A stretch of 64,000 nucleotides of DNA from Spirochaetia bacterium (GTDB lineage: Bacteria > Spirochaetota > Spirochaetia > CADAEX01). Position 1 is the first letter of the stretch, and every line of letters starts with the position of its first letter. The DNA lies in the NCBI GenBank assembly GCA_963668545.1, contig OY764868.1:3234015-3298014 (forward strand), written 5' to 3'. Under the pieces are notes generated by a model. That model was not told where the DNA came from, did no database searches, and was given only the letters and a program-made list of their open reading frames with translations. Both the position numbers and the translations under genes were made by a program. Positions 46,478-63,609 of the stretch are shown piece by piece.

Positions 46478-47278
46478 TTATAAAGGGCTCTTAATCCTTT
46501 TAGATATCGGATCTGCAAGATTAATATAGATCATTGTAGTTTTAACAGATTTATGTCCAAGCAGCTCTTTTACAGTCTTAATATCAATACCTGATTCAAC
46601 AAGATGAGTTGCAAAGCAGTGCCTCAGGGTATGACATGTGGGGCTTTTCTGTATTTGGCTTTTGTTAAGAGCATTTTCGAATATCTTCTGAACAGTCCTC
46701 ACAGAATATTTTTTTCCGCTGATTGTCCTGAACAGGAATTCAGCCGCACTTCGCCCGCTTATAAGATTCCGGAGGTCCTCTTTATATTTTTCGGACAGCA
46801 GAGAAAACCGGTCCTTATTACCCTTTGAATCTCTTATCTTTACTGAAAGATTATTTAAATTTACATCCCTTATCTTTATCCTGCAAACCTCGCTAACACG
46901 CAGGCCGCTGCCGTAAAGAAGGGAGATCATAAGCTGATGTTTTTTATTGCTTATATTTTTCAGAATTTCAAGGATCTCTTCCCTTGTCAGAATATCAGGA
47001 AGCCTTTTTCTTGACCTTACCCTGTCAAGTTTATAAGGGCACGGCTTATCAAGAACAACAGAATAAAACAGCTTTACGGCAGACCACGCAAGCCGTCTCT
47101 GTTCGGGAGATTTTTCTTCAGTTTCAAGAAAGACCGCAATTCTTTTTTCAGGCACAAAATCTGTCCGCCTAGAGAATTCAATAAAATGCTTTAAATGACC
47201 TGAATAAATCCGTATTGTATTTCGGGAATAATTACGGTTTTTCATCTCTCTGACAAAATCATCAAGATAATTTTTCAT
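46478..47278 (-). CDS. tyrosine site-specific recombinase, putative integron-associated integrase (compact, Xer-like; apparently lacks IntI-specific insertion)
   Basis: Catalytic R127 (GLRVSE), K152/155 (SKGNKDR), H216-x-x-R219 (HTLRHCFATHL), H242 and Y251 (LGHKSVKTTMIY). Divergent from the plus-strand cassette array. Confidence 0.8.
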   Translation of the reverse strand: MKNYLDDFVREMKNRNYSRNTIRIYSGHLKHFIEFSRRTDFVPEKRIAVFLETEEKSPEQRRLAWSAVKLFYSVVLDKPCPYKLDRVRSRKRLPDILTREEILEILKNISNKKHQLMISLLYGSGLRVSEVCRIKIRDVNLNNLSVKIRDSKGNKDRFSLLSEKYKEDLRNLISGRSAAEFLFRTISGKKYSVRTVQKIFENALNKSQIQKSPTCHTLRHCFATHLVESGIDIKTVKELLGHKSVKTTMIYINLADPISKRIKSPL

Positions 47279-47604
47279 AAATCACGTCCTCCTTTATGTA
47301 TTAACAGGAGAAATGCAATTCTGCTTGAATTATCAGCAAACAAACCGTAAAATTATCATGCAATACAGATAAATGTAGTTCATCTGAAATAACTCGGGGC
47401 TAAGAAAATTTAATATAACTGGCTCCAGCGGTAGATCAGCAAAGAAGCGGTGTAGCTTATGGGATATTGTCATGGCACATGATTAACGACAAGAACCGCC
47501 CCGAGTTACATCAGATAACAAGAAATATATGCGGCATTTCATTTGGGCTTCGCCACAATGGCTTCGTCCCTCAGCCATCGTCATATATTTCTAAAACGTT
47601 ATGT
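47279..47604 (+). other. attI-like region with degenerate attC-like structure ending in GTTAT core (47598-47602)
   Basis: 11-bp inverted repeat TAACTCGGGGC (47388-47398) / GCCCCGAGTTA (47497-47507), then cagATAAC-AAGAAATATATG...CATATATTTCT-aaaacGTTAT homologous to downstream attC sites. Confidence 0.5.
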
Positions 47605-47682
47605 TCAATGCCCATTTTTTTTACATTTTTTGAACTCGCCCGTCCATGGGCTCGTAAGAGGAAATAATTAAGGTAAATATAA

Positions 47683-49404
47683 GTGTCGAAGAAACTAACA
47701 ATTGAGGAAATGCAAAATATTGCTAAAAGTCGTGGTGGCAAATGCATCTCAAAGAAATATATAAATAAAAATAGTAAATTGGAATGGGAATGCTCTGAAG
47801 GCCATAGATGGTTAGCAACTCCAGATTCAATTAAAAATACTGGTCGATGGTGCCCTATATGCGGAGGTTCTGCACCATTAACGTTAAAAGAAATACAATT
47901 AATTGCTAAAGAAAGAGGTGGGAAATGTCTTTCCGAAGAGTATATCAATGTCAAAACAACAATGAGATGGGAATGTTCAGAAGGTCACCACTGGGAGAAC
48001 ACTGCCGGAAAAATTAGACAAGGTCAATGGTGCCCTTATTGTGCCGGAAAGGCAAAATTGGATATTCAGGACTTGAAAAGATTAGCAGAAGAAAAAGGCG
48101 GTAAATGTCTTTCTGAAAAATATAAGAACAATAGTTCAAAATTGTTATGGCAATGTTCAGAAGGGCATGAATGGAAATCCAGTGCAAATAATATTAAAAA
48201 TGGTGCGTGGTGTCCCTTTTGTGCTAATCGTGCAAGAATTACAATTGAGTCTCTATCAGATATTGCCAATAAAAGAGGTGGAGAACTTTTATCAACAGAT
48301 ATCGGAAATAACAAAACAAAATTGCAGTGGCGGTGCAAATACGGTCACACATGGAAAGCCACACCAAATGCCATTAGTAGAGGTACATGGTGCCCAAAGT
48401 GCTCAGAGGGTTTAGGAGAAAGAGTTTGTAGGTATTTCTTTGAAACACTTTTTGCAAAGAAGTTTAATAAAGCTCATCCTGATTGGTTGGTTTCAGAAAG
48501 AGGAGCGTTGCTTGAATTGGATGGATACAATGAAAGATTAAAAATTGCGTTTGAACACCAAGGCGTCCAGCATTACAAATTTTTAAAAGTTTTCCATTCA
48601 TCTAATGAGGACTTTATTGATCAGCAGAACAGGGATGAGCTTAAAAAAGAAGTTTGTAAAAAAAGAGGCATACACTTAATTGAGGTTCCAGAGATTCCAG
48701 CATTATTACCGTTGGATAAAGTCAAAGACTTTATTATTGAAAAATTGCAGGATTTACAGATTCCATTCAAATATGAAAAAGCAATATCAATTGATTTGAA
48801 TATAGCATATTCATCAAGTAAAACCGAAGAATTCTATATTCGTCTCCAGAAAGCTGTTGAAGAAAAAGGAGGAATATTAATTTCCAACCGATATCTCGGA
48901 ACTTCGACTAAACTTAAGTTCAAATGTAAAGAAGGGCATATCTGGAAGACATCTCCTAATATGATTTTTAATGGACAATGGTGTCCAGAATGTGCTGGAA
49001 ATATTAAATATACCTTAGAACAAGTTCAGGATTTTGCAAAAGAGCGAGGAGGGAAATGTCTATCGACAGAATACAATAGAGCAAATGAAAAGCTTAAATG
49101 GAAATGTAATTTTGGACATACTTGGGAAGCATCACTAAGTAATGTTATAACTGCAAATCATTGGTGTCCTGTATGTCGCAAGATTGAAGAAGAGACAAGA
49201 TTTTATAATGAAGCGGTTGATTTAGCAAAGAAAAATCAAGGAACTTGCATTTCAAGAAAATATATAAATGCAAAAACAAAGCTCAAGTGGCGTTGTTCCA
49301 GTGGACATGAATGGGAAGCGCTACTCGGTAATATTCGACAAGGAACATGGTGTCCTTATTGTGCCAAGAAGCGGAGAAATAGTAATACAGATAATTTATC
49401 GTAA
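47683..49404 (+). CDS. cassette 1: protein with seven ~45-aa treble-clef zinc-ribbon repeats (DUF4379-like, W-C-x-GH-W...W-CP-x-C) flanking a central DUF559/PD-(D/E)xK-like nuclease-fold domain
   Basis: Repeats KCxSxxY...KLxWxCxxGHxWxxxxxxIxxGxWCPxC occur 4 times N-terminally and 3 times C-terminally. The central LELDGYNERLKIAFEHQGVQHY resembles the restriction-endonuclease-like DUF559 core. Confidence 0.6.
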   Translation: MSKKLTIEEMQNIAKSRGGKCISKKYINKNSKLEWECSEGHRWLATPDSIKNTGRWCPICGGSAPLTLKEIQLIAKERGGKCLSEEYINVKTTMRWECSEGHHWENTAGKIRQGQWCPYCAGKAKLDIQDLKRLAEEKGGKCLSEKYKNNSSKLLWQCSEGHEWKSSANNIKNGAWCPFCANRARITIESLSDIANKRGGELLSTDIGNNKTKLQWRCKYGHTWKATPNAISRGTWCPKCSEGLGERVCRYFFETLFAKKFNKAHPDWLVSERGALLELDGYNERLKIAFEHQGVQHYKFLKVFHSSNEDFIDQQNRDELKKEVCKKRGIHLIEVPEIPALLPLDKVKDFIIEKLQDLQIPFKYEKAISIDLNIAYSSSKTEEFYIRLQKAVEEKGGILISNRYLGTSTKLKFKCKEGHIWKTSPNMIFNGQWCPECAGNIKYTLEQVQDFAKERGGKCLSTEYNRANEKLKWKCNFGHTWEASLSNVITANHWCPVCRKIEEETRFYNEAVDLAKKNQGTCISRKYINAKTKLKWRCSSGHEWEALLGNIRQGTWCPYCAKKRRNSNTDNLS

Positions 49405-49410
49405 TACTGT

Positions 49411-49438
49411 CCAAAAGTACCGTCCGTGGTACTTTTGG
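49411..49438 (+). terminator. hairpin immediately after cassette-1 ORF
   Basis: CCAAAAGTACCgtccgtGGTACTTTTGG; occupies the same position as the CCAGACC hairpins preceding other attC sites. Confidence 0.4.
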
Positions 49439-49471
49439 AATCTTTACTACACCAAAAAAAATGGGCACTAA

Positions 49472-49616
49472 ACATAACAGCGAATATGCGGTTACGCTTC
49501 GCTTCACCCAAATTGCTTCTTTGATAAAAGCTGAAAAAAGTATGTTATACTTTTCCCAGCTTTTATCAAGCCCACAAGGGGCCGAAGCAACTTCGCATAT
49601 TCGCGAGACGTTATCG
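49472..49616 (+). repeat. attC site of cassette 1
   Basis: ATAAC-agcgaatatgcg ... cgcatattcgcgag-acGTTATCG inverted arms; GTT at 49610-49612. Confidence 0.6.
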
Positions 49617-50044
49617 TAAATGGCTCTGACATACAACTTCATTCATTATTTACTAAAATCTGTCTCAGCCTTTTTTCAGGGTTTTATATCTCTTTCACAG
49701 GTTTCAACTGCACTGGTTCATTCTTGTTTTTAGAACTTCTTGCTTTGCTTTATCATGACTCTTATTGGTTTAAGTTTTTATATTTTTGCAGTTTCACTTT
49801 TCTTCAGTTCTGATATTGATAAGCACTAAGGGCTGAGTCAGATTTTGTCCTGACCTACACTCTTTCGTTTCCTTCACGCCACATCCGAAAACAGCGTATA
49901 TCCGGCTCCGGCTTGTGGGATGTATTTTCAGGGTAAAACGTCCTTCGCCAAAAATGCCAGGACTTTTTGTGTTGCAGAGTAAATGCAGCAGGTGTATCAT
50001 TAATCAAAATAAAGCGGCTGGCATCTTCGGATATACGCGTGCCG
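49611..50044 (+). repeat. ORF-less repeated cassette, copy a (434 nt, includes its own ~165-nt attC 49885-50050)
   Basis: Runs from the TT after the previous GTT core to its own GTT core. Divergent copy (about 90% identical to copies b-f). Confidence 0.6.
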
Positions 50045-50478
50045 TTTTCGGAAATGGCTCTGACATACAACTTCATTCATTATTCACGAAAATCTGTCTC
50101 AGCCTTTTTTCATGGTTTTGTGTCTCTTTCACAGGTTTCAACTGCATTTTTTCAGTTCTGCTTTTACAACTTCTTGCTTTGATTTTTCATGACTCTTATT
50201 GGTTTAAGTTTCTATATTTTGCAGTTTTCACACTTTTTAAGTTTTGTTATCTATAAGCACAAAGGGCTGAGTCAGATTTTGTCCTGACCTACACTCGTTC
50301 GTTTCCTTCACGCCACATCCGAAAACAGCGTATATCCGGCTCCGGCTTGCGGGGTGTATTTCCAGGGTAAAGCGTCCTTCGCCAAAAATGCCAGGACTTT
50401 TTGTGTTGCAGAGTAAATGCAGCAGGTGTATCATTATTCAAAATAGAGCGGCTGGCATCTTCGGATATACGCGTGCCG
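50045..50478 (+). repeat. ORF-less repeated cassette, copy b
   Basis: Same unit; attC arms gaAAAC-agcgtatatccg ... cggatatacgcgtgcc-GTTTTcg. Confidence 0.6.
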
Positions 50479-50913
50479 TTTTCGGAAATGGCGCTGACAT
50501 ACAACTTCATTCATTATTCACGAAAATCTGTCTCAGCCTTTTTTCCTTGGTTTTGTGTCTCTTTCATCGGTTTCAACTGCACTTTTTCAGTTCTGCTTTA
50601 AGAACTTAATTCTTTGATTTTTCATGACTCTTATTGGTATAAGTTTTTATATTTTTGCAGTTTCACTTCTCTTCAGTTCCGATATTGATAAGCACAAAGG
50701 GCTGAGTCAGATTTTGTCCTGACCTACTCTCTTTCGTTTTCTTCACGCCACTTCCGAAAACAGCGTATATCCGGCTCCGGCTTGCGGGGTGTATTTCCAA
50801 GGTAAAGCGTCCTTCGCCAAAAATGCCAGGACTTTTTGTGTTGCAGAGTAAATGCAGCAGGTGTATCATTAATCAAAATAAAGCGGCTGACATCTTCGGA
50901 TATACGCGTGCCG
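50479..50913 (+). repeat. ORF-less repeated cassette, copy c (identical to copy f)
   Basis: The 435-nt unit is identical base-for-base to 59612-60046. Identity starts and stops at the GTT cores. Confidence 0.65.
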
Positions 50914-50937: not shown

Positions 50938-50967
50938 ATTGCCCGGACCTCCCGGACGACACGGGCA
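50938..50967 (+). promoter_or_regulatory. conserved GC-rich hairpin module at 5' end of cassette (variant GCCCGGacctcccggacgacaCGGGC)
   Basis: About 25 nt downstream of the GTT core. Related modules at 53804, 56800, 58078, 60077 and 63524. Confidence 0.45.
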
Positions 50968-51004
50968 AAAGATTTAAAAAATATTTATTTTGCAGGAGAA
51001 AAAA

Positions 51005-51787
51005 ATGTTTTATGAGGAAATAAATAAAAGAACATGGAATGCAGCTAAACAATATTTAATAAATTTGTGTAAAGAAAGTTCGCATTGGATTTTTAGAGGT
51101 CAGTCAAATCCGGATTGGGAAGTAACTTCAACAATAGAAAGAGAATTAAGATATAGTGACCAAGAAAATTCTTCGATAGAAAATAAATTAATATCCGAAT
51201 TCAAAAGGGCTGCTCCCAATTATTTAAATCAAAACCAGATTCCTGCAAAACTGGTTGAATGGATGGCCTTAATGCAACATTACGGAGCTCCAACTCGTTT
51301 AGTTGATTTTACTAAATCTCCATATATTGCAACATTCTTTGCTTTTGAAAATATCTTTGAAAATTACAAATATGTTACAGTATGGGCAGTAGAAAGCTAC
51401 AAATTGAAGCAATTAGCTAATGAAGTGTATATAGATGATGATGTTCCCCAATTAATGAAAAATAATAAATATTTGGTATATCCTATTGAACCTTTTATAA
51501 TGAATGAAAGATTCGAAAAACAACAAGGGACATTTTTAATTACAGGAAACATTAATCAATCACTAGCTACAAATTTTATCGAAATGGGCTTATTAGAAGA
51601 TATGGGAATTATTAAAAAAATTAATATTCCAAAAATAGAAAAAAATAGTGTTATTCAAGACTTAAATTTAATGAATATCAATCCTGTAACTCTTTTTCCT
51701 GGTTTAGATGGATATTCGCGATACATAAAAAAAATGACAGATGCAATTTATAAAAAAGATTTTACTTATTTTAAAAGAGGAAATTAA
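51005..51787 (+). CDS. cassette: FRG-domain protein
   Basis: HWIFRGQSNPDWEV motif (FRG). ATG at 51005 with a GGAG RBS (the ORF track's TTG at 50990 is inside the conserved hairpin module). Confidence 0.65.
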   Translation: MFYEEINKRTWNAAKQYLINLCKESSHWIFRGQSNPDWEVTSTIERELRYSDQENSSIENKLISEFKRAAPNYLNQNQIPAKLVEWMALMQHYGAPTRLVDFTKSPYIATFFAFENIFENYKYVTVWAVESYKLKQLANEVYIDDDVPQLMKNNKYLVYPIEPFIMNERFEKQQGTFLITGNINQSLATNFIEMGLLEDMGIIKKINIPKIEKNSVIQDLNLMNINPVTLFPGLDGYSRYIKKMTDAIYKKDFTYFKRGN

Positions 51788-52910: not shown

Positions 52911-53339
52911 GAAATGGCTCTGACTCACAACTTCATTCATTATTCACAAAAATCTGTCTCAGCCTTTTTTCCATGGTTTTGTGTCTCATTTCTCGGTTTC
53001 AACTGCACTTTTTCAGTTCTGCTTTTACAACTTCTTGCTTAGATTTTTCATGACTCTTATTGGTATAAGTTTTTATATTTTTGCAGTTTCACTTCTCACC
53101 AGTTTTGATATTGATAAGCACTAAGGGCTGAGTCAGATTTTGTCCTGACTTACACTCTTTCGTTTTCTTCACGCCACATCCGAAAACAGCGTATATCCGG
53201 CTCCGGCTTGTGGGATGTATTTTCAGGGTAAAACGTCCTTCGCCAAAAATGCCAGGACTTTTTGTGTTGCAGAGTAAATGCAGCAGGTGTATCATTAATC
53301 AAAATAAAGCGGCTGGCATCTTCGGATATACGCGTGCCG
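52905..53339 (+). repeat. ORF-less repeated cassette, copy d
   Basis: Same 434/435-nt unit as copies a-c. Confidence 0.6.
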
Positions 53340-53773
53340 TTTTCGGAAATGGCTCTGACATACAACTTCATTCATTATTCACGAAAATCTGTCTCAGCCT
53401 TTTTTCAAGGTTTTGTGTCTAATCCTTGGGTTTCAACTGCACTGGTTCAGTTCTGCTCTTATAACATTTTGCTTTGATTTTTCATGACGCTTATGGATAT
53501 AAGTTTTTATATTTTTGCAGTTTCACTTTTCTTCAGTTCTGATATCGATAAGCACAAAGGGCTGAGTCAGATTTTGTCCTGACCTACACTCTTTCGTTTC
53601 CTTCACGCCACATCCGAAAACAGCGTATATCCGGCTCCGGCTTGTGGGATGTATTTTCAGGGTAAAACGTCCTTCGCCAAAAATGCCAGGACTTTTTGTG
53701 TTGCAGAGTAAATACAGCAGGTGTATCATTAATCAAAATAAAGCGGCTGGCATCTTCGGATATACGCGTGCCG
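53340..53773 (+). repeat. ORF-less repeated cassette, copy e
   Basis: Same unit. Confidence 0.6.
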
Positions 53774-54072
53774 TTATAAGCAATGTTTCCGCTAAGAGGA
53801 GAACGCCCATACCTCCGCCGACGGGCGAAGATTTAAAATTTATGATAAATTCAAAATAAAATGAAAGTATCTATGTATTGAATGATACGAAAGAATATGT
53901 TTATCAGAAAGAACTAAAATGAAATCATAGATGGTAAAACTTGACTTTTTCGTGATTAATAGTGATAGTTTTGTGATATTTCTGATTTTATAATATTAAT
54001 CTATTGAACCAATAATATTGAATATATTCCTTGACAGAGATTTTTACTGTATCTATCATTATCTTAACAACT

Positions 54073-55020
54073 ATGGAATATAGAGACTATTATAAAATCC
54101 TTGGCCTATCCAAGGATGCAACAAAAGATGATATAAAAAAGGCATACCGCAAACTTGCGCGTAAGTATCATCCAGATATAAACCTCCATGATAAAAAAGC
54201 TACTACTATGTTTGCAGATATCAATGAAGCAAACGAAGTGTTAAGCAGCGACGAAAAACGCAGGAAATATGATGCTCTGGGTTCAGACTGGCAGCAGTAT
54301 CAAAGTACCGGCTCCCAGAGGGCCTCACAACCACAGGGATTCGATTGGACACAATACGGTAAAGGAGCAGGCACTCAATCGTATACAGTTACAGAGGACG
54401 ACTTGAACAATATGTTTGGAGAAGGCGGTTTTTCGGATTTTTTCCAAAGCTTTTTTTCGTCCAGCCAGGAAAGACCGGGCAGTTCGGCTAAAAATTACGC
54501 AAGAAAAGGGCAGGATTATCAGGCTGAATTATATCTCGAAATTGAAGAAGCCTATAAAAAAACTGTTAAGACACTCTCTATAAACAGACAAAATATCAAG
54601 ATCACCCTTGAACCTGGCGTCAGGGATAGCCAGGTCATTAGACTGAAGGGTAAGGGCGGCCTAGGAATTAATGGCGGAGCTAATGGTGATTTATTTATTA
54701 CCCTGAAAATAAAACCCCATCCTATCTATAAAAGGGAGGGAGATGATCTGATTATGGAACTTGGTGTGAGTGTTTACAAAGCCATGCTTGGCGGCGAACA
54801 AATTATTAAATTATTATCAGATTCAATAAAAGTGAAAATAGCTCCCGAGACCCAAAGAGGGACAACACTACGCATCAAAGGAAAAGGATTTCCTTTGTAC
54901 AGGATAAAAGATGAATTTGGAGATTTATATATAAAGCTGGTTCTGGATGTACCCAAAAAGCTGACTGTAAAAGAGAAGGAATTAATAATGGAACTGGCCA
55001 AAATTAGGGGAGAAATATAA
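54073..55020 (+). CDS. cbpA: cassette: curved-DNA-binding DnaJ-like co-chaperone CbpA (J domain + DnaJ C-terminal domains, no Zn finger)
   Basis: MEYRDYYKILGL...HPD J-domain at the N-terminus, Gly/Phe-rich linker and two DnaJ_C beta domains. ATG at 54073 (the ORF track's TTG at 54031 would add 14 aa). Confidence 0.8.
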   Translation: MEYRDYYKILGLSKDATKDDIKKAYRKLARKYHPDINLHDKKATTMFADINEANEVLSSDEKRRKYDALGSDWQQYQSTGSQRASQPQGFDWTQYGKGAGTQSYTVTEDDLNNMFGEGGFSDFFQSFFSSSQERPGSSAKNYARKGQDYQAELYLEIEEAYKKTVKTLSINRQNIKITLEPGVRDSQVIRLKGKGGLGINGGANGDLFITLKIKPHPIYKREGDDLIMELGVSVYKAMLGGEQIIKLLSDSIKVKIAPETQRGTTLRIKGKGFPLYRIKDEFGDLYIKLVLDVPKKLTVKEKELIMELAKIRGEI

Positions 55021-55022
55021 AC

Positions 55023-55379
55023 ATGACAAGTCAAATATATATCCCTATCCAGGACGTTTCCGATTTTTGTCACATTAATATTACTATACTAAGAGATTTT
55101 GCCGAATACGAACTCATCAATATTCAAGAGTATAAAAATACCGAATGTGTGAAGGCTGATGATCTTGAACATATCAAGCGGATTATAGATTTATACAAGA
55201 GTCTTGGAGTGAATAAGGAAGGCATAGAGGTAATCCTGAAAATGCGCGACCAAATCCTGGAATTACAGGACGAAATTACTATACTTAAACATAAACTCGA
55301 GCACCGTAGAAACGACGTCAAATTTCGCTTTATAGAATTACCCAAGCAAAAGGGTTTATTGATTGATTATGATGAATAA
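55023..55379 (+). CDS. cbpM: cassette: chaperone modulatory protein CbpM (MerR-like)
   Basis: 118 aa, begins 3 nt after the cbpA stop. MerR-like fold; this is the canonical cbpA-cbpM pairing. Confidence 0.65.
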   Translation: MTSQIYIPIQDVSDFCHINITILRDFAEYELINIQEYKNTECVKADDLEHIKRIIDLYKSLGVNKEGIEVILKMRDQILELQDEITILKHKLEHRRNDVKFRFIELPKQKGLLIDYDE

Positions 55380-56775: not shown

Positions 56776-56799
56776 GAAATGTTCCCGCAAGAGGAAGAT

Positions 56800-56824
56800 C
56801 GCCCGGACCTCCGGCCGACGGGCG
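56800..56824 (+). promoter_or_regulatory. conserved GC hairpin module CGCCCGGacctccggccgaCGGGCG at cassette 5' end
   Basis: Identical or near-identical copies at 58078, 60077 and 63524; variants at 50938 and 53804. Confidence 0.45.
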
Positions 56825-56861
56825 AAGATAATTCAACAATAATGAAAAAGGAGATAATAAT

Positions 56862-58054: not shown

Positions 58055-58165
58055 TAAATGCCCCCCAAGAGAAGATCGCCCGGACCTCCGGCCGACGGGC
58101 GATAAGATTATAATGATTATGAATTGAATTAGACTACAAAAAAGTAAAGAGGAGGATCTACAGAT

Positions 58166-59617: not shown

Positions 59618-60046
59618 GAAATGGCGCTGACATACAACTTCATTCATTATTCACGAAAATCTGTCTCAGCCTTTTTTCCTTGGTTTTGTGTCTCTTTCAT
59701 CGGTTTCAACTGCACTTTTTCAGTTCTGCTTTAAGAACTTAATTCTTTGATTTTTCATGACTCTTATTGGTATAAGTTTTTATATTTTTGCAGTTTCACT
59801 TCTCTTCAGTTCCGATATTGATAAGCACAAAGGGCTGAGTCAGATTTTGTCCTGACCTACTCTCTTTCGTTTTCTTCACGCCACTTCCGAAAACAGCGTA
59901 TATCCGGCTCCGGCTTGCGGGGTGTATTTCCAAGGTAAAGCGTCCTTCGCCAAAAATGCCAGGACTTTTTGTGTTGCAGAGTAAATGCAGCAGGTGTATC
60001 ATTAATCAAAATAAAGCGGCTGACATCTTCGGATATACGCGTGCCG
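59612..60046 (+). repeat. ORF-less repeated cassette, copy f (identical to copy c)
   Basis: 435/435 identity to 50479-50913; the flanks differ on both sides. Confidence 0.65.
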
Positions 60047-60143
60047 TTATCAGCAATGTTCCCGCAAGAGAAAGATCGCCCGGACCTCCGGCCGACGGGC
60101 GAGGATTGTGAAAATAATTAGTTAAATTTCAAGGAAATTATTT

Positions 60144-62171: not shown

Positions 62172-63508
62172 TCCAACCAGGACATGGGTAACGATTTAAC
62201 TTCAGGACATAGGTAACACTTTTACAGGAATCTTTCCGAAACCTTTAATAAAAAAGGGAGGAAAGAAATGCCCTGGAAGGAGACTTATGTTATGGATCAA
62301 AGAAAAGAATTCGTACTGGAAGCAATGGATCCTCTCTGCAATTTTACTAAGCTTTGTAGTAAATACGGCATTTCAACTAAGACAGGATATAAGTGGAAAA
62401 GCCGTTTTATACAAGAAGGTTTTGCAGGCCTTTTTGATCAGTCGAAAAGACCTGATAATTCACCAACTCAAATAGATGAAGAGACGATACTTGAGATAAT
62501 AAAATTAAAAATAAAGAAAAAACACTGGGGGCCAAAGAAAATAAGAGAGATTTACAGGCAAAAACATCCTGATGAAATAATACCATGTCTTACCAGTGTC
62601 GAAAGAATATTAAGAAAAGCAGGTCTTATTAAAAAACGAAAGCGGAATCGGACAGGCAGTGGAATTAGACTTCAAACAAATGCTGTAGCTGAAAAGCCTA
62701 ATGATGTATGGACAGTAGATTTTAAAGGTTGGTGGTATACCCAAGATAAAGAAAAAGTGAATCCGTTAACTGTAAGAGATGATTTTTCAAAATACATTTT
62801 ATGCATAAAAGCTCTTGATAAAGGGGATACAGCTTCTGTAAAGGCTGAATTTGAGGTTCTTTTTAAAAGATTTGGACTTCCTAAAGTCATTCGATCAGAT
62901 AATGGACCTCCCTTTGCATCAAGAATGAGTCTTCTAGGCTTAACAAAGCTTTCAGTCTGGTGGATGGCTTTAGGTATTCAATTAGATAGAATTGAACCAG
63001 GTAAACCTCAGCAAAATGGAAGCCATGAACGAATGCACCTTGATATGAAAAATGAACTTGAAAGCTGTATCGAAGGAAATATTCTGCTGCACCAGAAAGA
63101 GTTTGACAGGTGGCGTAAAGAGTTCAATAACGAGAGGCCTCATGAAGCTTTAGGAATGAAAACTCCTGCTATGGTTTATACTGCATCAGAAAATAAATAT
63201 GACGGAATCATTGAGGACTTGGAATATCCCGGAACATTCAGGACACGGTTGGTAAATAACAGGGGTTATATAAGCATTAAAAGACGAATGTTCTTTATTG
63301 GTAATCCTTTCATGGGTTATTATGTAGGTATAAGACCGCAAAAGGACTGACAGCAGAATGTCTGGTTCGGTGATTATTTTTTAGGATCTTTGGATATGGA
63401 TACAGGATTATTACAGCCTGAGTCTATTGTGAAATTTAATAAGGGCAATTTAAGAAAACCGTTACCCATGTCTTGAAGGGGGACTGTTACCTATGTCCTG
63501 AAGTTGGA
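62172..63508 (+). mobile_element. IS481-family-like insertion sequence inserted about 20 nt downstream of an attC core, inside the conserved 5' module of the next cassette
   Basis: Ends TGTCCAACCAGGACATGGGTAAC (left) and GTTACCTATGTCCTGAAGTTGGAC (right, reverse-complementary). Each end carries two tandem copies of a ~17-nt CAGGACATRGGTAAC motif. Confidence 0.65.
62268..63350 (+). CDS. IS481-family transposase (HTH + rve DDE integrase core)
   Basis: N-terminal HTH; DVWTVDFKGW ... D ... E rve catalytic core; 360 aa single ORF. Confidence 0.75.
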   Translation: MPWKETYVMDQRKEFVLEAMDPLCNFTKLCSKYGISTKTGYKWKSRFIQEGFAGLFDQSKRPDNSPTQIDEETILEIIKLKIKKKHWGPKKIREIYRQKHPDEIIPCLTSVERILRKAGLIKKRKRNRTGSGIRLQTNAVAEKPNDVWTVDFKGWWYTQDKEKVNPLTVRDDFSKYILCIKALDKGDTASVKAEFEVLFKRFGLPKVIRSDNGPPFASRMSLLGLTKLSVWWMALGIQLDRIEPGKPQQNGSHERMHLDMKNELESCIEGNILLHQKEFDRWRKEFNNERPHEALGMKTPAMVYTASENKYDGIIEDLEYPGTFRTRLVNNRGYISIKRRMFFIGNPFMGYYVGIRPQKD

Positions 63509-63523
63509 CCCGCCAAGAGGAAG

Positions 63524-63548
63524 ACGCCCGGACCTCCGGCCTACGGGC
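63524..63548 (+). promoter_or_regulatory. conserved GC hairpin module (CGCCCGGacctccggcctaCGGGCG)
   Basis: Same module as at 56800, 58078 and 60077, here immediately after the IS right end. Confidence 0.45.
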
Positions 63549-63609
63549 GAAGAAAAAATGTAATTTAAAACAGAATTCGCTTTTTAGAGATGAATAATAA
63601 GGAAGATAA

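Follow-up and report, generated by a model that had tools for sequence, protein, structure and literature searches.

How a protein made of seven zinc modules and a nuclease-like core came to be carried by a bacterial integron, and what it does there, is the question raised by one gene of a Spirochaetia bacterium (NCBI GenBank assembly GCA_963668545.1, contig OY764868.1). The gene lies in a stretch of 64,000 nucleotides (nt; positions 3,234,015 to 3,298,014 of the forward strand), which is called the window below; coordinates refer to it unless another contig is named. On balance, we regard the product as a probable site-specific DNA endonuclease of the homing type, combining predicted zinc modules with a Vsr-type core, whose gene rides as an integron cassette and is most likely selfish or conflict-related. 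The analysis gives a well-supported annotation to a protein of a kind otherwise called 'hypothetical' or mis-named.

The gene and its predicted zinc modules

The open reading frame (ORF) at 47683–49404 of the forward strand is uninterrupted and encodes 573 amino acids (aa), and lies exactly where the first-pass annotation of the window had placed it. It begins with GTG and has AAGGT 8 nt upstream. The N-terminus of the protein, MSKKLTIEEM (MSKKLTIEEMQNIA), agrees with the MSRKL.IELM of the orthologues P0082 (MSRKLILELMKEIA) and P0109 (MSRKLSIELMREIA), and the long GTG start is therefore taken to be correct. The copy of the gene in a sister contig, L001 (ENA ERZ21869602), has a 2-nt insertion at about L001 position 884 (window 47731), 16 codons into the ORF, because of which the public protein from that contig, P0001, is only 541 aa long, starts 32 residues later and has lost half of repeat 1. 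The L001 copy is either a frameshifted gene or an assembly error. In the window the protein is laid out as four repeats, a core and three repeats:

47683–49404 (+): ORF of 573 aa with four CapR/DUF4379 modules, a Vsr/EDxHD-like nuclease and three more modules, from profile and motif searches
47689–48414 (+): repeats 1–4 (aa 3–63, 64–124, 124–184 and 184–244), from regular-expression and hidden Markov model searches
48415–48822 (+): central nuclease domain (aa 245–380)
48823–49374 (+): repeats 5–7 (aa 381–441, 441–501 and 504–564), from the same searches as repeats 1–4

The motif WCPxC occurs seven times (C57, 117, 177, 237, 434, 495 and 557) and WxCxxGHxW six times, the fifth repeat copy reading FKCKEGHIW with F for the first W. 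Seven repeats of this pattern, four N-terminal and three C-terminal, had been predicted in the first-pass annotation, and both the regular expression and Pfam bear out their number and placing; the predicted repeat length of about 45 aa was too short. The first Cys residues stand at 37, 98, 158 and 218 and at 415, 475 and 538, the unit is 60–63 aa long, and the conserved Cys/His core within each repeat covers about 42 aa. A median period of 60 aa was obtained from 876 adjacent-repeat spacings in the 120 closest homologues. The Pfam family DUF4379 (PF14311), which bears the description 'probable treble clef zinc finger', matches seven stretches of the protein (E-value = 3e-34; 117.3 bits against a gathering cutoff of 24.5), and CapR (PF21817) matches six (E-value = 3e-28; 98 bits against 24.2).

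From the same 120 homologues, 1131 repeat copies were collected, which give the consensus TIEEMxxxAxxRGGKCLSxxYxNxxTKLxWxCxxGHxWxAxPxxIKxGxWCPxC. The four candidate zinc ligands, C35, H39, C54 and C57, are conserved in 100, 99, 100 and 99.9% of the copies, respectively, and an accessory Cys (that of GGKC) in 97%; in the protein studied here, the accessory Cys is gone from repeat 4 (GGELLS) and repeat 5 (GGILIS). An AlphaFold2 model of repeat 2, built with 97 diverse repeats as input, has a pLDDT of 88 and consists of a helix (5–14), a short strand (18–19), two strands (30–34 and 40–44), a helix (45–50) and, last, the CPxC knuckle; C35 and H39 lie in the turn that joins the two longer strands. 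The repeats are thus predicted to bind zinc. In the CapR protein of the Vibrio PLE satellite, a domesticated homing-endonuclease module, mutation of its four Cys residues led to loss of DNA binding (PMC8096241). PLE CapR differs from the present protein in having a single module with a CxxC...CxC ligand pattern and no nuclease, and in its relatives in ICP1 the module is joined to T5orf172/GIY-YIG and not to Vsr.

The WCPxC and CPYC motifs also resemble the active sites of redoxins, and the names given by JGI to P0005 and P0007 ('thiol-disulfide isomerase/thioredoxin') would make the protein a thiol-disulfide oxidoreductase. There is a Pfam Redoxin match (E-value = 6e-6; 26.5 bits), but its score is under the cutoff of 26.6, no stretch of it qualifies, and it covers just one motif with its surroundings, 25 residues in all. 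No thioredoxin fold is seen in the modelled repeat, and the CPxC recurs once per 60-aa module together with invariant Cys and His residues, as is typical of a metal site. An oxidoreductase is therefore hardly to be considered. The Redoxin, mycoredoxin, BRCT and zf-Di19 matches all fall below threshold and are driven by CPxC, and were rejected.

Six orthologues with the same 4+3 layout are 55–62% identical overall. At repeat positions 43–52, which take in the last part of strand 3 as well as the short helix, same-index repeats of these six are 56–79% identical when the generally conserved I48 and G51 are left out, whereas repeats of different index are just 2–25% identical. Each index has kept a signature, for example ATPDSVKN for repeat 1, ENRPQKIKAG for repeat 2 and KTKPNMIFSG for repeat 5. 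Because these positions are alike between orthologous and unlike between paralogous repeats, the modules seem to be individually specialised, which suggests that every 60-aa module recognises a sub-site of its own in a conserved target, with positions 43–52 as the putative specificity segment. Among the 1131 repeats, 1086 distinct segments 42–52 were counted, the variation being spread over about 12 positions, and recurring 'code' residues like the repeat-variable di-residues of transcription activator-like effectors were looked for in the same repeats and none were visible. The conservation module by module between orthologues makes the family a candidate natural multi-module DNA-targeting nuclease, for which mapping of the cleavage site would be worthwhile.

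The predicted central nuclease domain

A PD-(D/E)xK-like core similar to DUF559 and Vsr had been proposed at first on account of the segment LELDGYNERLKIAFEHQGVQHY, which is aa 277–298 of the protein. In an alignment of 39 diverse cores, E246, D280, G281, F290, E291, G294, H297 and D318 are invariant, and R250, E278, Q296 and K321 nearly so. The candidate catalytic residues, whose lack of conservation would have spoken against such a core, are thus invariant throughout, and their codons are:

48418–48420 (+): E246
48520–48522 (+): D280
48553–48555 (+): E291
48571–48573 (+): H297
48634–48636 (+): D318

In the model of the core, E246 lies on helix 1, D280 (in ELDGY) on strand 2, E291 and Q293 on strand 3, H297 in the loop after strand 3, and D318 (in RD) on helix 2. 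The EDxHD motif is made up of E, D, H and D, with an acidic residue or N ahead of the His, on a Vsr fold (PMC3239194). In its prototype I-Bth0305I, the counterparts of E246, D280, E291/Q293, H297 and D318 would be E170, D196, an acidic residue/N208, H213 and D222 (PMC3239194), and in Vsr they would be E25, D51, T63/H64, H69 and D97, with the same order and secondary-structure placement. By direct reading, FEHQGVQH in this core aligns with Vsr FTHGCFWH without a gap and NRDELKK faces ERDRRD of Vsr, while the loop from the strand-3 acidic residue to the His is one residue shorter here than in I-Bth0305I. The residue-by-residue equivalence is a proposal from such readings of sequence. There are also clear differences: the DNA-binding region of I-Bth0305I (PDB 3r3p) is NUMOD2/helix-turn-helix, whereas the present protein has CapR/DUF4379 modules instead, and a Pfam scan found no NUMOD in it; Vsr (PDB 1cw0) is a single-domain enzyme that nicks at T:G mismatches, with its own zinc site and intercalating Trp residues.

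Sequence searches by themselves do not reach these enzymes. The 39-sequence core profile had no match to 3r3p or Vsr in the PDB at E-value ≤ 10, hhalign of the profile against Escherichia coli Vsr gave no relationship (probability 0.2), and PDB searches with the protein and with the profile returned chance matches only, RadA for example. The Pfam gathering thresholds of DUF559 and DUF2726 were not reached. So, of the early proposal, which is right about the protein for the most part, the DUF559 part is not upheld by Pfam, and the core is predicted to have a fold of the Vsr/EDxHD type with invariant catalytic-type residues, an assignment now backed by structure prediction and homology.

Relatives in phages, viruses and cells

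The family is very large and barely studied. Of the candidates scored, over 3700 proteins gave a match to the complete protein at E-value ≤ 1e-10, and the core profile found 34,924 cluster representatives at E-value ≤ 1e-3 and 10,692 at E-value ≤ 1e-10 out of 1.84 billion. In IMG/VR, 245 stretches encode a relative, including contigs of giant-virus metagenome-assembled genomes (MAGs; GVMAG contigs) and contigs of 160–460 kb, so that the suggested giant-virus relatives do exist. Cellular hosts of relatives include Bacillus, Priestia, Ignavibacteriae, Bacteroidia, Treponema, Desulfobacterales and Methanosarcinales, and a scan of genome contigs found relatives of 27–48% identity in Ignavibacteriae, Methanosarcinales, Treponema, Bacteroidia and others. 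The PHROG families 559 ('HNH endonuclease'; E-value = 1.5e-84) and 681 (5e-74) match the protein. The labels of relatives say little or are mistaken ('zinc-ribbon domain-containing protein', 'HNH endonuclease', 'thiol-disulfide isomerase'), and no bacterial member with the repeats-core-repeats layout has been characterised so far. This layout is common: the central domain is present in 112 of the 120 closest homologues, 110 of which have repeats on both sides of it, and the flanking repeats number 1–11 on the N-terminal side and 0–9 on the C-terminal side.

The nearest characterised relatives are selfish. A homologous core is found in 73 phage records, from phages of Firmicutes, with such names as 'VSR homing endonuclease', 'group I intron protein' and 'intron-encoded protein'. 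One of these proteins, gp079 of Staphylococcus phage Terranova (Terranova_079), has its ORF in a group I intron that the gene for the terminase large subunit contains; its alignment with the present protein extends over three repeats and the nuclease, 271 aa in all, with an E-value of 2e-15, and the catalytic residues agree, with GE(K/R), D, ExQGxQH and RDExKK in both. Proteins of its type share with the present one the tandem ~60-aa CapR/DUF4379-like modules and the transition CPxC-x3-GE(K/R) from modules to nuclease; the cores of the phage homing endonucleases and of this protein have in common the motifs ELDGY / LSYDFY, (A/L)(F/I)E(H/Y)QGxQHY and RDExKK. A 2025 paper on phage group II introns describes proteins with three to five CapR/DUF4379/DUF723-like domains of ~60 aa and an EDxHD/Vsr-like domain as a large outgroup of the EDxHD/Vsr homing endonucleases (PMC12350094). 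Both of these features, the tandem ~60-aa CapR/DUF4379 domains and the EDxHD/Vsr-related nuclease domain, are present here. The modules of the phage proteins, however, are all N-terminal to a C-terminal nuclease and the genes lie in self-splicing introns, whereas here modules stand on either side of the nuclease (4+3), a layout common among database relatives, and the gene is free-standing in a bacterial integron cassette. The gene is thus a member of a kind already noticed and still uncharacterised, and the new part is its location in an integron cassette. The homology to intron-borne phage homing endonucleases fits the first-pass suggestion of a nucleic-acid-targeting protein, defensive or selfish.

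Two readings that would do away with DNA cleavage can be weighed here. The first makes the protein a domesticated regulator in the manner of PLE CapR, which would bind DNA without cutting it, its core being only a scaffold. CapR is indeed a repressor derived from a homing endonuclease with the same module (PMC8096241), and eight of the 120 closest homologues consist of repeats only, without a core. But all five candidate catalytic residues are intact, invariant across the 39 diverse homologues and the same in Terranova_079, and since a scaffold would not maintain them, this reading is quite improbable. The second, to which we give still less credence, is that the protein binds or cleaves RNA, both module types having relatives in organellar RNA machinery. 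The repeat matches concerned are not significant, however, and the best matches of the core are DNA enzymes; the nearest sequence relatives are intron DNA homing endonucleases, and CapR binds DNA.

Several members of the family lie next to site-specific recombinases in unrelated genomes (L018–L020, 6356–6922; L021, 5201–6454; L023, 6027–6968). In a prophage-like region of Bacillus thuringiensis a member is located 79 nt downstream of a small serine recombinase, another lies near a large serine recombinase and insertion sequence (IS) elements, and in an archaeon a member is found 33 nt downstream of a XerA-like recombinase. This adjacency could be a coincidence of mobile contexts or a functional link. 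In a Methanosarcinales MAG (L008, 1–319 and 1080–2693), the 3' end of the 23S rRNA gene is followed, about 760 bp downstream, by the gene of a 40%-identical relative; homing endonucleases are classically found in the neighbourhood of rRNA genes.

The gene as a mobile integron cassette

The gene lies close to an integron-type integrase gene in an array of cassettes, of which the beginning is made up as follows:

46478–47278 (−): integron-type tyrosine recombinase of 266 aa, with the Pfam domains Phage_integrase and Phage_int_SAM_4
47279–47380 (+): attI region, with the recombination point GTT at 47378–47380, from junctions in L001 and L106
47381–47598 (+): ORF-less, cassette-like unit of 218 bp between attI and the nuclease cassette, missing from L001
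47599–49610 (+): nuclease cassette of about 2012 bp, from after the G of GTTAT 47598–47602 to the G of GTTAT 49610–49614
49410–49439 (+): terminator-like perfect 12-bp stem-loop with a T-rich tail, 6 nt past the stop codon
49473–49614 (+): attC of the nuclease cassette, 142 nt (R'' ATAAC 49474–49478, R' GTTAT 49610–49614), from folding

The attC site contains imperfect inverted repeats (49480–49501 with 49583–49604, and 49521–49543 with 49547–49569), and its bottom strand folds with −40.3 kcal/mol (z = −8.6), as none of 200 shuffled sequences does. In L001, the attI sequence ...AATGTAGTT runs straight into the beginning of the nuclease cassette, ATGTTCAATGCCC..., and in the related contig L106 another cassette follows the same attI point. 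Window and L001 are 99.8% identical over 47598–49612, with four differences, and about 90% identical past 49613, directly after the GTT of attC, and other L001 cassettes match other positions of the window array. Because attC folds and the identity with L001 breaks exactly at the GTT points, the gene is a genuine mobile integron cassette, comprising an ORF and a folding attC, which has moved as a unit at G|TT. Its GC content is 36.2%, against 41.9% for the chromosome.

The 218-bp unit in front of the nuclease cassette contains no ORF of 60 aa or more. It has an attC-like site at about 47513–47602, in which ATAAC 47514–47518 pairs with GTTAT 47598–47602 and the bottom strand forms a hairpin (z = −4.2), and two nested inverted repeats (47382–47400 with 47498–47516, and 47521–47531 with 47582–47592). 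The gene is thus in the second unit of the array here and in the first only in L001, and promoter-like matches in the attI region are at chance level (13, against 8.5 ± 3.0 expected); on both counts the idea that it is cassette 1, and so the best-expressed one, is not supported for the window. One terminator-like site, the stem-loop listed above, was found in 47150–49700, where 1.4 are expected by chance.

With the cassettes of sedentary chromosomal integrons the nuclease cassette shares a single ORF with a folding attC that has R'' and R', the shuffling of cassette order between related arrays and the G|TT breakpoints. It departs from the usual cassette in being large, about 2 kb, and in its cargo, since the homing-endonuclease type did not appear as described cassette cargo in a literature search. 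For the closest homologue, P0044 (62% identity, 4+3 layout), there are attC-like sites on either side as well, but they have the classical GCCTAAC...GTTGGAT form (hairpins with z = −5.0 and −4.6), and the integron is of a different type. Homing-endonuclease-type genes can thus be integron cargo. Not all relatives are carried in this way: P0082 and P0109 are free-standing in Bacteroidota-like chromosomes, and attC arrays were looked for beside the homologues P0078 (L003) and P0120 (L023) and none were found.

The host integron and an apparent exchange of the attI region

The array of the window belongs to a sedentary chromosomal integron. Housekeeping genes of diderms, for instance those for Lnt and RlmKL, are present in the window, and in L106 the integrase, 92% identical in protein, lies in the same chromosomal flank (Lnt, radical SAM, phosphoribosyltransferase and cupin). 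The L106 array itself differs, starting with a ThsB-type TIR gene, and its attC types are related.

The integrase is unusual. Its best match in the PDB is VchIntIA (2a3v; E-value = 2e-37), query residues 9–173 and 195–266 being aligned with 9–181 and 246–317, and about 43 aa are missing where VchIntIA has the IntI-specific additional domain. This domain is considered diagnostic of, and essential for, integron integrases. The NCBIfam integron-integrase model scores 205 bits in two stretches, against a cutoff of 265, and standard integron finders would probably miss the array. The cassette array beside the 266-aa integrase is nevertheless evidently active. Homologues of a constant 265–266 aa are common in Spirochaetota, where they are annotated only as XerD or tyrosine recombinase; those at NCBI include one of Spirochaeta isovalerica (63% identity) and others from MAGs of Spirochaetales and Treponema, and they indicate a host within Spirochaetota. 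An integron-like system in Spirochaetota without the IntI-specific insertion may be the more interesting lead of the two.

The nuclease cassette and the attI region have a history that differs from that of the integrase gene. Between the window and L106, divergence is uniform: the intI genes are 84–91% identical and the attI regions 87%. Between the window and L001, by contrast, intI is only about 70% identical, whereas the 102-bp attI region agrees in 101 of 102 positions and the cassette in 99.8% (window 47271–47380 and 47598–49612). As the block is near-identical and the integrases have diverged, attI and the cassette appear to have been exchanged recently between integrons. The left breakpoint of the exchanged block is near the intI start codon and not at an IntI crossover point, which argues for homologous recombination, by transformation-driven replacement or by endonuclease-stimulated gene conversion. 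Alternatively, L001 may be a chimeric metagenome assembly. Mere functional constraint on attI was rejected as an explanation of the high identity, because with L106, a vertical relative, attI has an identity of only 87%. An exact scan of metagenome contigs for an attI 21-mer gave 0 matches.

These observations admit a more specific reading, in which the nuclease would be an active homing-type element living as a parasite on the integron platform: integrons without it would be cut, at or near attI or the 5' end of intI, and recombinational repair would then copy it in. A related possibility would be that the two arms of individually specialised zinc modules make up, around the central cutter, a modular DNA-reading array open to re-targeting. 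Such parasitism would explain why the attI and cassette block is 99–99.8% identical though the integrase genes are only about 70% so. We nonetheless consider this reading unlikely.

Probable function

As a molecular function, site-specific DNA endonuclease activity is likely. In the mechanism that we propose, the seven zinc-stabilised CapR/DUF4379 modules of ~60 aa, four before the core and three after it, would bind an extended DNA target, each through its own specificity segment at repeat positions 43–52, and would place the central PD-(D/E)xK domain of the Vsr/EDxHD type on the DNA. The core would then cleave by means of an acidic metal-binding cluster of E246, D280, E291 and D318, with the histidine H297 as the general base. 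By descent, the gene would be a free-standing offshoot of the lineage that group I and II introns of phages harbour, now a promoterless cassette that moves by attC × attI recombination and would not depend on homing of its own alone. Its persistence would most likely be selfish or conflict-related. The ancestry favours a selfish role of the homing type. A defensive or conflict role gains weight from the unlinked positions of orthologues, from the wealth of defence genes in the arrays and from published work on defence cassettes. A role that is primarily selfish has somewhat less than an even chance in our estimation.

Three results weigh against this proposal. Structure comparison of the repeat model with solved structures found no significant structural relative. 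In classical homing the gene stays beside its own target site, yet five members of the 4+3 subfamily are found in five unrelated neighbourhoods, which speaks weakly against site-linked homing. Finally, an Rfam screen of the window and of 14 related loci detected neither introns nor other RNA families, a weak negative from an insensitive screen, for the annotated group I introns of Terranova (L004) were missed too.

The same sequence-specific DNA nuclease activity might be kept for host defence. The cassette would then be a compact defence system of one gene, whose product cuts a sequence conserved in phages or in other DNA that invades the cell. The arrays contain defence-like cargo: an FRG-domain cassette of the window (50990–51787, +) matches PADLOC PDC-S15 with an E-value of 1e-53, and the sister arrays have HEPN_AbiU2 (L001, 5462–5559) and the ThsB-type TIR gene as the first cassette (L106, 7270–7851). 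Cassettes of integrons are known to serve as a reservoir of phage defence (bioRxiv 10.1101/2024.07.02.601719; PMC12614218), and the retention of module-specific residues while genomic neighbours differ points to a conserved target that is unlinked to the location of the gene. On the other side, no defence model of PADLOC-DB 2.0 matches the protein at E-value ≤ 0.1, the cassette has no partner gene for immunity or modification, so that self-cleavage would be avoidable only by absence of the target, and the nearest characterised relatives are the selfish intron-borne homing endonucleases. Host defence is thus a possible but doubtful explanation, and we prefer the homing-type endonuclease carried as a selfish or conflict-related cassette.

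Other features of the cassette array

A cassette of about 434 bp with no convincing ORF exists in six copies, 89–92% identical, in the window (49671–49970, 50105–50404, 50540–50839, 52966–53265, 53400–53699 and 59673–59972). Three of them stand in tandem right after the nuclease cassette, and further copies were found in L001 and L106.

Cassettes normally have only attC in common. In this array, a GC-rich leader hairpin, CGCCCGGACCTCCGGCCGACGGGCG, opens at least five different cassettes, about 40 nt past the GTTAT crossover and just upstream of the ORFs, and it has no match in Rfam. Its copies are:

53790–53833: leader hairpin
56794–56829: leader hairpin
58071–58103: leader hairpin
60071–60106: leader hairpin
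63519–63553: leader hairpin

Diverged versions of it are present in the FRG cassette (about 50943–50975) and in the nuclease cassette (about 47636–47656).

An IS481-family transposase gene (rve, HTH and LZ_Tnp_IS481 domains) lies inside the array at 62268–63350 (+), in a region that is 94.5% identical to L001. Between attC sites at 54031–55379 (+), a DnaJ-like protein of 329 aa (J domain and DnaJ_C) and a MerR_2 regulator of 118 aa are encoded, apparently in a two-gene cassette.

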